Positions 13,057-47,011 of a stretch of DNA of 64,000 bases are shown piece after piece. Where the stretch lies: NCBI RefSeq assembly GCF_965641715.1, contig NZ_OZ282453.1, one strand, 5' to 3'. The position numbers and the translations under genes are program-made. The notes beneath the pieces are model-generated. The model saw nothing but the letters and a program-made list of their open reading frames with translations. It made no database searches and was not told the origin of the DNA. Positions within the stretch are counted from its first letter, which is position 1, and each line of letters opens with the position of its first letter. Source of the stretch: Escherichia coli (GTDB taxonomy: Bacteria; Pseudomonadota; Gammaproteobacteria; Enterobacterales; Enterobacteriaceae).

Positions 13057-13158
13057 ATGAAAGAGAATAAAGTACAACAAATCAGTCATAAACTGATTAA
13101 TATCGTTGTTTTTGTCGCAATTGTAGAATACGCCTATTTATTTCTCCATTTCTATTAA
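13057..13158 (+). CDS. ykgR: Small hydrophobic peptide (33 aa), YkgR-like
   Basis: ATG with GAGGA Shine-Dalgarno 8 nt upstream; 33 codons; hydrophobic C-terminal half; not in the ORF track (below 60 aa). Confidence 0.5.
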   Translation: MKENKVQQISHKLINIVVFVAIVEYAYLFLHFY

Positions 13159-13492
13159 TAACGGCAATAAACTGTTCACTTCAGTGATATTTAAAATATG
13201 CATCCTCTCCCTTTTTGTAAGTAATTATTATATCCGTGGGAGAGGAATACACGCTGTCAGGTAATCAATCATACTGCGATAAATCATCGGCCAGTAAAGT
13301 GGAGATAACCTCCATTCTCGAAAAATCCATACTCTCAGCGAAACTATCATCAATCACTCATCCAGGCGTTTATGGGAGCGTCGCCAATGGCTGTTAACAA
13401 TGCCAGAGTTCCCCGTTGAGGAAATTCCACATACCACTAATGGTCACAGGGATTGGGTGTTGAAATGATCCGGATGAGCATGTATCTTTATG

Positions 13493-13510
13493 GTTATGTT
13501 ATAACATAAC
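13493..13510. promoter_or_regulatory. Perfect 18-bp palindrome gttatgttataacataac, Zur-box-like operator upstream of rpmE2
   Basis: Read directly; matches the Zur (Fur-family) AT-rich palindrome class; ends 9-12 bp before the rpmE2 start. Confidence 0.5.
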
Positions 13511-13521
13511 AGGCAAAAATG

Positions 13522-13785
13522 ATGAAGCCCAATATCCATCCTGAGTATCGTACTGTGGTGTTCCACGACACCAGTGTTGATGAGTACTTTAAAATCGGCT
13601 CGACTATCAAAACAGACCGTGAGATTGAGCTGGATGGCGTAACGTATCCGTACGTAACAATTGATGTCTCTTCGAAATCGCACCCGTTCTATACAAGGAA
13701 GCTGAGAACAGTGGCATCAGAAGGAAATGTTGCACGGTTCACCCAACGTTTTGGTCGTTTTGTTAGCACGAAAAAGGGGGCATGA
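13522..13785 (+). CDS. rpmE2: Ribosomal protein L31 type B (zinc-independent paralog)
   Basis: 87-aa product [16 protein letters not shown], no Cys zinc ribbon; followed by rpmJ2. Confidence 0.85.
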
Positions 13786-13925
13786 TGAAAGTCCTTAACT
13801 CTCTGCGTACCGCAAAAGAACGCCATCCAGACTGTCAGATTGTGAAGCGAAAAGGACGGCTATATGTGATTTGTAAATCTAATCCACGCTTTAAGGCCGT
13901 TCAGGGTCGTAAGAAAAAACGTTGA
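13785..13925 (+). CDS. rpmJ2: Ribosomal protein L36 paralog (zinc-independent)
   Basis: 46-aa [49 protein letters not shown]; start overlaps the rpmE2 stop (tgATG); not in the ORF track. Confidence 0.8.
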
Positions 13926-14940
13926 TTTAAAATTCGACGAATTAACGATATTTGTCTGATTAATAATCAGACCGGATTAATGTTGGTGTATTTATTACAC
14001 CAGCATTAATTTTCCTGGGGATGTATCTTCCTGTTCATTTAAGGTCAACTGCCTGACGTTTCTCTCCGAATATTCCATTATATTAATGTTGACTTGTTGA
14101 CCAGCTTCGCCCCTGTATGCTGGCATCAACCCTCTTTTAGACTGAACACGCCACTCAGTTTCCTCCCTTTGCGACGCAGCCTGCATTTACACTCAAACTG
14201 TTAAGATGATAAATGTGGTAAATCTGTTGGTACTGACATAAAAACGTTTACGCCACAGGAACGGCCTGATCCACCGGTAACCCCGTCGCCGACGTTCGAG
14301 TGCCAGTTAGAGTAACGCGCACAGATGACTGAATGCAGTGCCCTGGCAAAGAGGCCATCGTTCCGGTGACAACTGGCAGTCTTCGTTTAACTTCACTTAA
14401 TCTGGCTCTTAGGGGGCTTACCGGACAGATGACGTACTTACACCTGTTTAATTTTTCATCACTTATTGGGATGAACACCCATAACCATTTTGTGCGGCAT
14501 GTTAACCCATTAAAACACCTTACTGATTGGCAAATCATCTTTAATTATGACTCATGATAGTTTTATATTCTATTTCTTATCATTTAGACTTGTTTTTTTA
14601 CTAGTCCATTACACAACACATTAAGACTATTCCTAACATCTCAGGGCAAAGTTCCTGGCTAATATAAAATGCAAGTAAGAATTGAACGTTATATTGCCAA
14701 TAACCTTATGAAACTGAATGTCTTTTTCTTCTTATCAAAAAAGCAATATTTTCATTTTTTGTAAATATTGACTTAACCATGGAATTCATTTTCTGTTCAC
14801 ATATTGACACTCATCAGGAAAAAAACATAAATTTAAACCTAATCGAAATAATTAAAACTTAATCTCGTTTAACCTATATTGATATGTGCTACGTATCTTA
14901 TTTACTTCCGATTTACTAAAGAAACTGAATGTACCTGTAA

Positions 14941-32203: not shown

Positions 32204-32440
32204 ACGTTAACAACGACCGACTCTTCACTGTGCAATATTGTGTCAGGTAGTCACTCTGCGTTCAATTCCAGGGGCCGCTTTGAGCGAGAAAGAGCGGACT
32301 TATCTGTACAAGGGGACTATCCAGCAATGGAGATCACCCAAAAGAAAAAACTACCTGGCTCCCTCAACAACCTTCATCCGGGAATTTAGCCTCAATCAAC
32401 ATTTTTATATCTGTCAGGTTACTTCATTATGAAAACCGAT

Positions 32441-32705
32441 CAATATCGTTGTTTTTGTTGCAATAGTAGAATACGCGTATTTATTCCTCCATTTCTATTA
32501 ATAACGGCCATAAACTGTTCATTTCACTGATATTTAAAATATGCATCCTTTTCAAGCTGTTCAGCGGCGTAAGAAAACGTATTAAATATGAATTCGACGA
32601 TTTAACCATTTCTGTCTGATTGGTAATCATCTGTGATTAATGCTGGTCTATTGATTACGCCAGCATTAACCGCTTAGGGATGTATTCTTCCTGTTGATAT
32701 ACAGC
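32441..32705 (+). repeat. Degenerate second copy of the ykgR-rpmE2-rpmJ2 locus with the central ~680 bp missing
   Basis: 32441-32546 aligns to 13099-13215 (ykgR 3' end plus downstream); 32550-32705 aligns to 13896-14046 (rpmJ2 last codons plus downstream flank); about 80-85 percent identity by eye. Confidence 0.6.
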
Positions 32706-42671: not shown

Positions 42672-43051
42672 ACTTCCCCCTGATACAACGTCACACCAGT
42701 ACTGCAGAAGTCATCAAAGGTCGCCGGAAGCGTGCGGTACATCTCCGCCATTACTTCACAGCCGCGCGCGGTCAGTACCGGCGGCGCGGTCAGCAGTGAC
42801 GGCTCCAGCATGTCAGTCAGCAGTGCCAGCGCGGCAGCGGCGCCCTGTGCTTCGCCGTACTCGTTAATCAGTGCGCACTCGATATGCAGCGCAATGGCCA
42901 TTTCAATACGCTCCACCGTCAGGCTGTGCGGACCATACTGATCACTGCCAGTTTCGTTCAGCATTTTCTGCCGCCATGCTGAAGCAATAGCCCGCCGGTA
43001 AAGCGCGGTTGTCATTTCTGCCGGGAAAATGGAAACCTGCGGCTGGTTCAT
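42668..43051 (-). CDS. Hypothetical protein, satellite left operon
   Basis: 127-aa ORF; 4-bp overlap with the alpha start and the upstream ORF. Confidence 0.4.
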   Translation of the reverse strand: MNQPQVSIFPAEMTTALYRRAIASAWRQKMLNETGSDQYGPHSLTVERIEMAIALHIECALINEYGEAQGAAAALALLTDMLEPSLLTAPPVLTARGCEVMAEMYRTLPATFDDFCSTGVTLYQGEV

Positions 43052-43332
43052 CTGGCACCTCCTTCAATCAGTGCACAGCTGTGCGCAATATCCGTCAAAT
43101 CTGCCCGCAGGTACTCCATCAGCGCGGCGACACCATGCGCACAGCCAGCGTCCAGTGCTCCGGCCTGAGACGGGTATTCAGAAAAGAGAAGCTGGAGCAT
43201 GTCGCAGGCATTTCTTGCGCGGGTCAGCTTTCCGAAACTGTCCTCTGACAACCCATAGGCAAAAGCACCGGTATTGTGTTTTTCAGGCAAAGTGTGGCCC
43301 TGAGCACCGTTGTGCCCGTTTGAAATATTCAT
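43048..43332 (-). CDS. Hypothetical protein, satellite left operon (epsilon-position)
   Basis: 94-aa ORF in an overlapping gene train. Confidence 0.4.
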   Translation of the reverse strand: MNISNGHNGAQGHTLPEKHNTGAFAYGLSEDSFGKLTRARNACDMLQLLFSEYPSQAGALDAGCAHGVAALMEYLRADLTDIAHSCALIEGGAR

Positions 43333-43363
43333 CGTGGATTACTCCGTTTTCAGCGGTATTTTG

Positions 43364-43723
43364 TCAGAGAAACTTTGAATAGTGACCGTCGTCAGGCTCA
43401 GCAGAACGCCGTATGCTACGCTCCCGCCAGCGGATAAATAGCACAGACGGATGCAGTGTCAGCGGGCCGGAACCACTACCGCCTGCAGGAGCTGGTGCAG
43501 GCTTAAAGAGCGGTACATCAAACAGGCGCGTATACCGCTGTTCAAACCATGCCAGAGGGCAGGAAGAAAGCTGGTTGTCGCTGTCATGACGTATCAGCAC
43601 TTCACAGCTGAATTCAGGATTAACCAGCGCCACAGAGGGCGAGGCTTCAATTAATCGGATAATCGTGACCGTCCAGCCACGTTCATGCTGCCAGCGTTCG
43701 CCGGGGTGCGGATAATTACGCAT
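43364..43723 (-). CDS. Hypothetical protein, satellite left operon
   Basis: 119 aa from the internal Met MRNYPHPGERW; ATG overlaps the stop of the upstream small ORF. Confidence 0.4.
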   Translation of the reverse strand: MRNYPHPGERWQHERGWTVTIIRLIEASPSVALVNPEFSCEVLIRHDSDNQLSSCPLAWFEQRYTRLFDVPLFKPAPAPAGGSGSGPLTLHPSVLFIRWRERSIRRSAEPDDGHYSKFL

Positions 43724-43892
43724 GTTCACCTCCGCAGGGAATGCGCCCGGCAAAGCTCAGTACATAATCCGGGGCAAGTCTTCGCCGCGCTGACCGCTCG
43801 TTATCTGCGGTGATCCTTAACATCACAGGACGGGCATTGCGTTGACTGCGGTTGATCGCCGCAAATAACCAGGTACACTTCTGTTTAGCCAT
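43716..43892 (-). CDS. Small basic protein (58 aa), first gene of the left operon
   Basis: ATG with AAGAGG Shine-Dalgarno 8 nt upstream; MAKQKCTWLFAAINRSQRNARPVMLRI...; not in the ORF track. Confidence 0.3.
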   Translation of the reverse strand: MAKQKCTWLFAAINRSQRNARPVMLRITADNERSARRRLAPDYVLSFAGRIPCGGEHA

Positions 43893-43983
43893 CTTCGTTA
43901 CCTCTTATAACGGTTGGTTAAATGCCCGATTTGTGTTCCCGCACAATCGGGCATTGCTTTTACAAGCGAACTATACTTACAAT

Positions 43984-44023
43984 GGTAATTACCATGTAGT
44001 CATCATATTCCAGGGTAATTACC
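43984..44023. promoter_or_regulatory. Two copies of the perfect 10-bp palindrome GGTAATTACC (43984-43993 and 44014-44023); candidate operators
   Basis: Read directly; between the divergent left operon and the RHH ORF. Confidence 0.4.
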
Positions 44024-44197
44024 ATGTCAACACCACAAGAGAAACGTTCCCCACCATTCCAAATGCGTCTTACCGACGATTTTAGGTTGCAACTCGAAAA
44101 AGAAATGCGCAAAGATGGAGATAGCGCGTTGGCAACTTGGATTAAAAGAATTTTACGTAAAGAACTACAATCACGCGGGATTGACCCTAAAGGTTAA
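44024..44197 (+). CDS. Ribbon-helix-helix (Arc/MetJ-like) candidate repressor, 57 aa
   Basis: MSTPQEKRSPPFQMRLTDDFRLQLEKEMRKDGDSALATWIKRILRKELQSRGIDPKG; beta-strand plus two helices pattern; not in the ORF track. Confidence 0.45.
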   Translation: MSTPQEKRSPPFQMRLTDDFRLQLEKEMRKDGDSALATWIKRILRKELQSRGIDPKG

Positions 44198-44229
44198 TCA
44201 GTTAAATATTACTAACTATCAATTAAGGC

Positions 44230-44520
44230 TTAGGGAGTAGGTGATAATCTATTCCCTTTATTAATTGCTCTTGCCTTATTTCTCATCCCCTCAAACTGTT
44301 GACCTGAGTTTTCTTCAAACCCATCTCGCCACTTATAATAATCAGCAGCGCGCCATCGGGACATCCGACCTATTTTTATAGGTTTTGGAAAGCGATTCAG
44401 AGAAATCAATCGATAAATCCATTTGTCACTTAATAAACAATCGGAAGTAATAAACTTCATATCGATCAGAGAATCCATTGAAGGTCGTTGCAAAGTAGTA
44501 TTATCATGTTTAGATAACAT
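44230..44520 (-). CDS. alpA: AlpA-family prophage regulatory protein
   Basis: Motif IYRLISLNRFPKPIKIGRMSRWRAADYYKW typical of AlpA; true start may be an internal Met. Confidence 0.65.
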   Translation of the reverse strand: MLSKHDNTTLQRPSMDSLIDMKFITSDCLLSDKWIYRLISLNRFPKPIKIGRMSRWRAADYYKWRDGFEENSGQQFEGMRNKARAINKGNRLSPTP

Positions 44521-44645
44521 TCATCATTCTCCGTTTATCTAAGTCTATTGGCTTCAACACGGAAAATTAAAACATAGGTTATAAATGAGAAAAATGTGAC
44601 TAATGAAAAAAATCCAAAATCATTAGTCACAATAATTGTTAACAT

Positions 44646-45470
44646 TTAGTTAAACTTAATGTTTTTCATGCAACTACGTAGCAAGCTAACAACAGTATCA
44701 TAGCTCAAAGGTGGTTCTCCGGTCTTAGGCCAGAACTCACTGGCATGTTGAAAAAGATAATCAGCTATCGCTGCTGGACTCTCTCTTCTTAGCCTCATAT
44801 CACGATGATAGAGCGAAATAATAGCCATGAGTATTTCAGTTCGAGGAACAGCATGTTTTTGTTTTTGCGCCTCAGATTGTGATTTATATTTATTGGCGTT
44901 TTTTATCCGTTTTTGTTCGCATAAGACTATATCAATGAATTTTTGAATCTGTACCTTTGTAATCCACAAAACCTCAAAAAGATAATAATTTTCTTTTTCA
45001 TCATAATTTACATAAAGAATTACCTTACAATTTATATTAGGCGTACCCGCCAGTAGAAAATGAATAGGCCAGGAATCCGGTTGCCCCTCATGCTTAACTA
45101 ACAGATCTTTATATTCATAATCAACAGCCCATAAACCGGATATAAAGCATCGAATAAAACCATTTTTATCAATTAAATTATTTTCATCAGGGATTCTTAT
45201 AGAGCTTAAGTCTGACAACATAATATTGCCATTTCTATCTCGTGGTAAATATTTCAGATTAGATAAGAACTCATCCAGTTGACCATCAATCTTCAAACCA
45301 CATGAAACATCATACTCATCATCATGGAATTCCATGCATAGCTCTACATCTCGTTCTCTGGCAAACCAGAGTATATCCTTTTCACTACAACCAATTTTTT
45401 CTGAAGCTTCATCCAACTGGTAGTAATCTCTGAGCAGAGAATCAGTATTATTAATTTTTAAAATATTCAT
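44646..45470 (-). CDS. Hypothetical protein (274 aa), AT-rich island cargo
   Basis: Long ORF; start overlaps the integrase stop by 4 bp; no motif recognised. Confidence 0.5.
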   Translation of the reverse strand: MNILKINNTDSLLRDYYQLDEASEKIGCSEKDILWFARERDVELCMEFHDDEYDVSCGLKIDGQLDEFLSNLKYLPRDRNGNIMLSDLSSIRIPDENNLIDKNGFIRCFISGLWAVDYEYKDLLVKHEGQPDSWPIHFLLAGTPNINCKVILYVNYDEKENYYLFEVLWITKVQIQKFIDIVLCEQKRIKNANKYKSQSEAQKQKHAVPRTEILMAIISLYHRDMRLRRESPAAIADYLFQHASEFWPKTGEPPLSYDTVVSLLRSCMKNIKFN

Positions 45471-46657
45471 TTATGAGTACCAATTAGCTCAGATAAATAA
45501 TTAGCATACCATTGCATCATTTCTCTTCTCCCTTCGAGATATTGGGCATGGTTATAAATTCCACGAATAGAGTTTTTGTCCGAATGAGCAAGCTGGGTTT
45601 CAATCCAAGCGCTGTTAAATCCTTTCTCATGTAGAATTGTACTCATCGTATGCCTGAAACCATGTCCCGTAACACGCCCTGCATATCCAATACGTTTAAA
45701 CACCTGATTGATGCTTGCTTCACTCATAAATTTGCTAGGATCGTTGCGTCCAGGGAACATCAGCGGGTAGTTCCCAGTTAGTTCTTTCAAACTTTTGAGA
45801 TGGGATAATGCTTGTTTTGGTAACGGGACAATATGGCTCCTACGCATTTTCATACGTTCTTTTGGGATCTCCCACACCGCATTATCAAAATCCACCTCTC
45901 GCCACTCACCTGCTCGTAGTTCTCCAGTTCGTAGACCTGTCAGGATAAGTAAATGCGCCCCCAACAATACAATTGGACTTCCTGAATAAGAATTAAGGGC
46001 ATTAAAGAACTCCGGTAGTTCGTTGGCTTTGAGGAATGGATAGTGGACTGCTTCATGTCCTTGCATCGCACTGGCAAGATCCGGTGCCGGATTGTAGATT
46101 GCCCTACCCGTTACGATGGCATAGCGAAAAACTTCACCGCATCGCTGACGGACTTTCTTCGCTTTCTCCATAGCGCCTCGAGCTTCTATCAACCTCAGAA
46201 CTTCAAGCAGTTCAAGGGGCTGAATATCAGCTATAGGTCTGTGCCCAATATGCGGAAAAATGTCTTTCTCAAATGCCTCAATGATGTCGGAAGCATAGCC
46301 CTCAGACCATTTGGATGATTTCATTTTGTGCCACTCTAACGCCACTTCTCTGAATGGGTTAAGTGTCTCAATCGCTGCGTTTAAAGCCTGCTTTTTGGCT
46401 TTTTTGACTTCGCCGGGATCTTCACCTGCTGCGAGTAGTTTCTTTGCGTCTTCTCGTTTTTGTCTGGCATCAGCAAGTGTGACTGTTGGATAAACACCAA
46501 AGGACAATCGTTTCTCTTTACCAGCAAAACGGTATTTCATACGCCAGTAACGCGAGCCATTAGGTTCGACCTGAAGGTATAGGCCACCTCCATCAAACAG
46601 CTTATAGCTCTTCTCTTTTCCTTTCGCAGCTTCAACCTTGCGGGCATTCAGCATCAT
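45467..46657 (-). CDS. int: Tyrosine integrase (P4-type), tRNA-adjacent
   Basis: N-terminal SYKLFDGGGLYLQVEPNGSRYWRMKYRF; C-terminal catalytic HxxR...Y (HGFRHT ... GIYNHAQYLEGR); ORF extends to 46726. Confidence 0.85.
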   Translation of the reverse strand: MMLNARKVEAAKGKEKSYKLFDGGGLYLQVEPNGSRYWRMKYRFAGKEKRLSFGVYPTVTLADARQKREDAKKLLAAGEDPGEVKKAKKQALNAAIETLNPFREVALEWHKMKSSKWSEGYASDIIEAFEKDIFPHIGHRPIADIQPLELLEVLRLIEARGAMEKAKKVRQRCGEVFRYAIVTGRAIYNPAPDLASAMQGHEAVHYPFLKANELPEFFNALNSYSGSPIVLLGAHLLILTGLRTGELRAGEWREVDFDNAVWEIPKERMKMRRSHIVPLPKQALSHLKSLKELTGNYPLMFPGRNDPSKFMSEASINQVFKRIGYAGRVTGHGFRHTMSTILHEKGFNSAWIETQLAHSDKNSIRGIYNHAQYLEGRREMMQWYANYLSELIGTHK

Positions 46658-46821
46658 TGGGGGCACATTTCCTAGACCGAACAGAACATGCCCCTGATTG
46701 TGCCCCCAACCGCGTGTTGATTTCAAGAGACAAGGGTTGACCTCAAACGTATGAAAACAACGTAATATATATGTTTTTAAATGATTTTGTTGATGTGGGT
46801 TGACTTGGGAAAACTAGGTGA

Positions 46822-46897
46822 TGGTGCCGATAATAGGAGTCGAACCTACGACCTTCGCATTACGAATGCGCTGCTCTACCAACTGAGCTATATCGGC
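46822..46897 (-). tRNA. thrW: tRNA-Thr (anticodon CGU)
   Basis: 76-nt cloverleaf GCCGATATAGCTCAGTTGGTAGAGCAGCGCATTCGTAATGCGAAGGTCGTAGGTTCGACTCCTATTATCGGCACCA on the minus strand; 3' end duplicated at attL. Confidence 0.9.
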
Positions 46898-47011
46898 CCT
46901 GAAAGGACATGTTCACGAACGTGAATCACGGTGGACAAGGGTAAAACTAACCGGGCGATGCGTCAATGGCCTTGTGAATCAAATGGCTACTTTTGCATCA
47001 CCCGGTTTTAT

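Follow-up and report, generated by a model that had tools for sequence, protein, structure and literature searches.

The operator through which Zur controls the ykgM-ykgO operon (L31B/L36B) of Escherichia coli is already known and characterised. For K-12, PMC4219657 cites its prediction by Panina et al. (2003), and the site has since been described at the level of its sequence, its thermodynamics and its function in vivo, together with a Zur-DNA crystal structure obtained on the related znuABC operator. On the basis of that structure, Gilston et al. (2014) put forward the 18-bp skeleton RxxxYRxxR*YxxYRxxxY and the 20-mer TGWNAYRWTATAWYRTNWCA (PMC4219657). The same work gives a Zur footprint of about 30 bp, an apparent dissociation constant (Kd-app) of 0.025e-18 M2 for the E. 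coli L31p operator, the tightest of four Zur operators, and a 560-fold repression of the L31p operon by Zur in vivo, determined by RT-PCR (PMC4219657). An older matrix ranks znuABC first, though it is the L31p operator that binds tightest, as remarked by Gilston et al. (PMC4219657). Moreover, Aseev et al. (2020) found the expression of a ykgM-lacZ fusion to be negligible in the wild type and to rise about 1000-fold in a zur::kan strain or in the presence of the chelator TPEN (PMC7297116). In Yersinia pestis, Li et al. (2009) footprinted Zur with DNase I at the promoter of ykgM and found it to overlap the -10 element (PMC2706843).

The window analysed here, a stretch of 64,000 nucleotides of E. 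coli DNA, carries at 13493-13510 the sequence GTTATGTTATAACATAAC. This palindrome is almost certainly the Zur operator of the ykgM-ykgO operon, with binding assigned by analogy with K-12, in which the palindrome is identical. The identification follows from the motif fit, the score given by a leave-one-out matrix and the conserved position in 80/80 loci, and none of the data speak against it. What was observed directly in this analysis is the sequence itself, its fit to the motif, the absence of a second such site from the window, and the conservation and placement of the site; Zur binding, affinity and zur- or zinc-dependent expression would carry over from published work on K-12 DNA that is identical or nearly so. 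In particular, the gel-shift probe Cy5-L31P (Gilston Table S2) agrees with 13477-13524 at 47/48 bases, the sole difference being C13514 in place of T. The features of the locus, and those of a related remnant elsewhere in the window, are collected in Table 1.

Table 1. Coordinates of the ykgM-ykgO control region, the operon and the related remnant within the window (a dot marks features assigned to no strand)
Feature	Coordinates	Strand	Basis
-35-like hexamer TTGAAA, putative ykgMO promoter	13460..13465	+	Consensus scan; TTG conserved at matching distance from the box
-10-like hexamer TATCTT, putative	13483..13488	+	Consensus scan; TAnnnT conserved 17 bp after TTG
Zur box, 20-bp register TGWNAYRWTATAWYRTNWCA	13492..13511	.	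19/20 on either strand
Zur operator core, palindrome halves GTTATGTTA and TAACATAAC	13493..13510	.	18/18 to RxxxYRxxR*YxxYRxxxY
Predicted Zur dimer 1 site, RNNNYxxxRNNNY = G-TTA-T-GTT-A-TAA-C	13493..13505	.	Sequence against the dimer motif of PMC4219657
Predicted Zur dimer 2 site, G-TTA-T-AAC-A-TAA-C, 5 bp from dimer 1	13498..13510	.	Sequence against the motif of PMC4219657
Shine-Dalgarno-like AGG, 8 nt before ATG 13522	13511..13513	+	Sequence; invariant in the Escherichia alignment
ykgM (rpmE2), type B zinc-free ribosomal protein L31, 87 aa	13522..13785	+	NCBIfam NF002462; RefSeq
ykgO (rpmJ2), type B ribosomal protein L36, 46 aa	13785..13925	+	NCBIfam NF002021; RefSeq
Probable operon terminator, 15-bp hairpin followed by UUUU	13976..14010	+	Inverted repeat; RNA fold
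Ghost copy: ykgR 3' fragment (32433-32549) and ykgO tail/terminator remnant (32550-32701)	32433..32701	+	blastn, tblastn

The original prediction had described a perfect 18-bp palindrome ending a few bases before the rpmE2 start, and both statements were borne out. The sequence equals its own reverse complement around a dyad centre at 13501/13502, the symmetry being broken at the next outward bases, G13492 and A13511, and it is the only perfect palindrome of at least 16 bp in the 64 kb. Its 3' end lies 8 nt from the first in-frame ATG (13519) and 11 nt from the ykgM ATG annotated by RefSeq (13522).

The R/Y skeleton, written as RNNNYRNNRYNNYRNNNY (two overlapping RNNNYxxxRNNNY dimer sites), is matched at 18/18 positions of 13493-13510 on both strands; being unspecific, with 472 exact matches within the window, it constitutes weak evidence when taken on its own. 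At no more than one mismatch, the 20-mer, whose register includes the central TATA at 13500-13503, matches the window once, at 13492-13511, and none of 100 dinucleotide-preserving shuffles gives any such match. A leave-one-out matrix was built in the 20-mer register from the K-12 znuC, zinT and pliG operators (NC_000913.3) and their reverse complements, the ykgM site being excluded in order to avoid circularity. The Zur matrix scan that had been proposed as a check on the original prediction thus came out positive, 13492-13511 being the single outstanding match in the window (23.2 bits, versus 10.4 bits for the next non-overlapping match). The training sites score 23.5-25.8 bits against their own matrix, and the maxima of 200 shuffles have a mean of 13.3 bits and a largest value of 19.0 bits. 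Secondary matrix matches at offsets of -5 and +5 (13487 and 13497) reflect a 5-bp periodicity, that is, the internal GTTAT/ATAAC repeat forming the overlapping dimer sites; the assignment of each dimer to its site in Table 1 is a prediction.

The classical 9-1-9 consensus AATGTTATAWTATAACATT fits less tightly. It has 4/19 mismatches in two registers, 13490 and 13495, 5 bp apart, which are the sole matches in the window at up to five mismatches, and a scan of the window at up to three mismatches gave no match. The site has an even centre and can be read as a pair of overlapping 9-1-9 boxes, each with four mismatches. Compared with the 23-mer, it shows 7/23 mismatches. The only moderate fit to the 9-1-9 model agrees with the remark of Gilston et al. 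on the older matrix (PMC4219657).

Relatives of YkgM were searched in one genome per species, which yielded 80 loci of about 3.2 kb each, from Escherichia, Citrobacter, Kluyvera, Phytobacter, Kosakonia, Enterobacter, Klebsiella and Salmonella, as well as from Atlantibacter, Cedecea, Serratia, Photorhabdus, Brenneria, Vibrio, Pseudoalteromonas and others. In 80/80 of these loci the best matrix match of the whole locus starts 29-49 nt 5' of the ATG. The information-content profile of 81 upstream regions anchored on the box shows a sharp island on box positions 1-20, preceded a few bases 5' by TAnnnT and, 17 bp further 5', by TTG, which is the spacing of a sigma-70 promoter. Among seven aligned Escherichia sequences the palindrome and the AGG that follows are invariant and the flanks vary, and the 101-nt promoter/operator stretch is present in 5,049/5,426 complete E. 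coli genomes.

A consensus scan found TTGAAA-17-TATCTT 5' of the palindrome. The TTG is conserved in the 81 orthologous upstream regions (T in 95%), and TATCTT ends 4 nt before the palindrome (13489-13492 in between), the distance from the -10 to the box being one base longer in Escherichia than in other genera. With these hexamers, transcription is predicted to start near 13495, within the box. The box may itself contain another -10 of the extended type, TGtTATAAC (13497-13505), and Zur would occlude either -10 candidate. A literature search yielded no experimentally mapped start of E. coli ykgM transcription, and the exact start, the hexamer chosen as -10 and the footprint boundaries given for this strain are to be read as predicted.

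As regards translation, a GAGG-like peak occurs near the ykgM start across genera in the 81 upstream regions. The ATG at 13519 is not conserved in the seven-sequence Escherichia alignment, so that 13522 is the likelier ykgM start, and the latter is the start used by RefSeq in a 99.5%-identical E. coli locus. The base directly after the AGG, 13514, is C in this strain (AGGC) and T in K-12 and most E. coli (AGGT); it lies 3 nt outside the 20-mer.

Three other explanations of the palindrome deserve consideration, one being that it arose by chance, without function, in an AT-rich intergenic region. Palindromy per se is indeed not beyond chance, since first-order Markov simulations of the window contain on average 0.26 perfect 18-bp palindromes each, and 23% of the simulated windows hold at least one. 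What goes beyond chance is the Zur-motif match together with the position: an independently derived motif and matrix are matched far above shuffles, and the site keeps the same place in 80/80 loci, over many genera, while the flanking bases drift. A chance origin, to which hardly any probability can be given, is refuted by this conservation combined with the published binding data. The palindrome could also be an iron-responsive Fur box, or the site of some other Fur-family regulator: Fur and Zur are homologous proteins, and each recognises an AT-rich inverted repeat about 19 bp long. However, the Fur consensus GATAATGATAATCATTATC is mismatched at 9/19 positions even in its best register, and the central TATA is described as Zur-specific, distinguishing Zur from Fur boxes (PMC4219657). 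Moreover, expression in K-12 responds to zur and to zinc chelation (PMC4219657, PMC7297116), and a Fur-type site is extremely improbable.

Finally, the palindrome might act at the RNA level, as a 5'-leader hairpin that exerts translational control or serves autoregulation by binding L31/L31B. With the upstream promoter, whose start would fall near 13495, most of the palindrome would be transcribed; folding gives a short hairpin at 13497-13511, and proteins of the L31 family are known to regulate the rpmE leader (PMC7297116). Against this, the leader folds at -7.4 kcal/mol with z = +0.85, a value that 160/200 shuffles equal or better, and 39 distinct orthologous boxes display no covariation: 78.2% of the cells are paired, versus 79.0% in shuffles, the covariation score is 0.129 versus 0.139 in shuffles, and the changes break the symmetry without compensation. 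This lack of covariation is the pattern of a base-specific protein site. Furthermore, bL31 supplied in trans was without effect on ykgM-lacZ (PMC7297116), and an Rfam search returned nothing significant, the only match being folP 3' of ykgO, at 20 bits versus a gathering score of 99. A leader hairpin as the function of the palindrome is thus scarcely credible.

For the Zur operator, the following mode of action can be proposed. In zinc-replete cells, a pair of Zur dimers loaded with zinc would bind cooperatively to opposite faces of the operator, one at 13493-13505 and the other at the overlapping 13498-13510. Centred on the dyad, their footprint of about 30 bp would extend roughly from 13487 to 13516; it would reach the -10 hexamer at its 3' edge and cover the predicted start as well as the first transcribed bases, so that RNA polymerase would be excluded and the operon would stay silent. 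As free zinc drops, Zur would lose its regulatory zinc and leave the DNA, upon which sigma-70 RNA polymerase could transcribe ykgM-ykgO, and the cysteine-free paralogues would then substitute for the zinc-binding L31 and L36 in ribosomes. The site would in this way control the exchange of ribosomal proteins that contain zinc for zinc-free ones in zinc starvation, which is relevant to survival in the host.

The proposal that Zur represses the zinc-independent L31/L36 paralogues is supported by the motif and matrix match at this locus and by the published zur- and zinc-dependent expression in K-12. The zinc-dependent reporter assay that had been suggested as a further check has in fact already been done, in K-12, where the box is identical, with the predicted result (about 1000-fold, PMC7297116; 560-fold, PMC4219657). 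The locus therefore offers no new biology, and its rediscovery shows that a real operator can be recognised from sequence alone.

The genes 3' of the box are cysteine-poor type B paralogues of the kind found in zinc-starvation regulons. YkgM, which contains no cysteine and is 99% identical to K-12 YkgM, scores 117 bits with NF002462 (cut-off 86), and YkgO scores 91 bits with NF002021 (cut-off 70); ykgO overlaps the ykgM stop by 1 nt. The RNA fold of 13926-14025, which includes the probable terminator, reaches -30.8 kcal/mol (z = -5.5, 0/200 shuffles), although a simple terminator scan found none 3' of ykgO. On the minus strand, opposite the ykgO terminator region, a 63-aa reading frame (13995-14186) corresponds to a hypothetical protein in RefSeq strains, and K-12 annotates ykgL in the corresponding interval. 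The small gene 5' of ykgM is ykgR, and the surrounding genes (flavin oxidoreductase, ykgR, ykgM, ykgO, ecpR, ecpA) mark the stretch as E. coli chromosomal DNA. The zur gene is located far from ykgM on the K-12 map and hence is not expected in the window.

Codon 59 of ykgM (13696-13698, the change being at 13696) encodes Arg, giving FYTRKLRT within the conserved HPFYTGK motif, and the residue is Gly in K-12, in strain XH990, in E. albertii and in one divergent E. coli. The 121-nt segment around G59R is 100% identical in 0/4,931 matching complete E. coli genomes, the best reaching 99.2%, and the change is either a private substitution or a sequencing error. It is very unlikely, albeit conceivable, that the strain differences C13514 and G59R alter the behaviour under zinc starvation, or that the transcribed palindrome plays an additional role in the mRNA leader; were it so, one outcome of C13514/G59R could be an alternative L31 that is weakened or altered.

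A second region of the window, the ghost copy at 32.4 kb, had been contrasted with the ykgM locus as lacking the operator. This is literally true, and the leave-one-out matrix finds no match in the ghost region, but the contrast is misleading, since the promoter, ykgM and most of ykgO are missing as well. By blastn, 32433-32549 is 92% identical to 13090-13206 (the 3' portion of ykgR with the bases that follow) and 32550-32701 is 76% identical to 13890-14041 (the last ykgO codons and the terminator). The two halves abut directly, with no equivalent of 13207-13889, the stretch that holds the promoter and box, ykgM in full and the greater part of ykgO. At the ghost, tblastn recovers residues 12-33 of YkgR and 36-44 of YkgO, and over the 64-kb window it found no second copy of ykgM. 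The idea of an rpmE2 copy that has lost its operator was rejected on the grounds that no ykgM remnant is present (blastn, tblastn). The region constitutes what is left of a second ykgR-ykgMO-like locus. Its ykgR piece, which is preceded by a stop codon, is annotated by RefSeq in other strains as a pseudogene 'missing N-terminus', and the region is accessory, being found in 923/5,426 genomes. The ghost looks as if 683 bp had been deleted, and its two halves differ markedly in divergence. A diverged copy of the ykgO terminator hairpin is kept at about 32636-32669.

Elsewhere in the window, 43000-47000 contains genes for an integrase, an Icd-like cell-division inhibitor and a helix-turn-helix regulator, together with several hypothetical genes, adjoining a tRNA-Thr gene, a gene content that points to an integrated mobile element. 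The full stretch occurs in only 64 complete E. coli genomes. Within it, AT-rich DNA at 44513-45122 holds a cluster of several weak matches to the Fur consensus, with 4-5 mismatches each, which are probably due to chance.

Among the known systems, the Fur box resembles the present site in being an AT-rich inverted repeat bound by a pair of Fur-family dimers, and differs from it by the 9/19 mismatches at the palindrome and by the central TATA, which is Zur-specific. The box of the orthologous ykgM-rpmJ2 operon of Y. pestis (PMC2706843) likewise lies just 5' of ykgM, has been footprinted, overlaps the -10 and mediates repression by Zur, but its sequence, GATGTTACATTATAACATA, is an imperfect repeat described by the odd-centred 9-1-9 model. 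The K-12 ykgMO operator (PMC4219657) has the same 18-bp palindrome, at the same position relative to ykgM, with the same downstream operon and promoter hexamers; the differences are limited to the T at 13514, a few substitutions further 5' and the Gly at YkgM residue 59. Finally, the E. coli znuABC, zinT and pliG operators share the 20-bp register, the R/Y skeleton and the central TATA, and are bound by two Zur dimers, as indicated by the crystal structure on znuABC (PMC4219657). These three sites are imperfect palindromes, whereas the ykgM site alone is perfectly symmetric and is the one with the highest reported affinity (PMC4219657).
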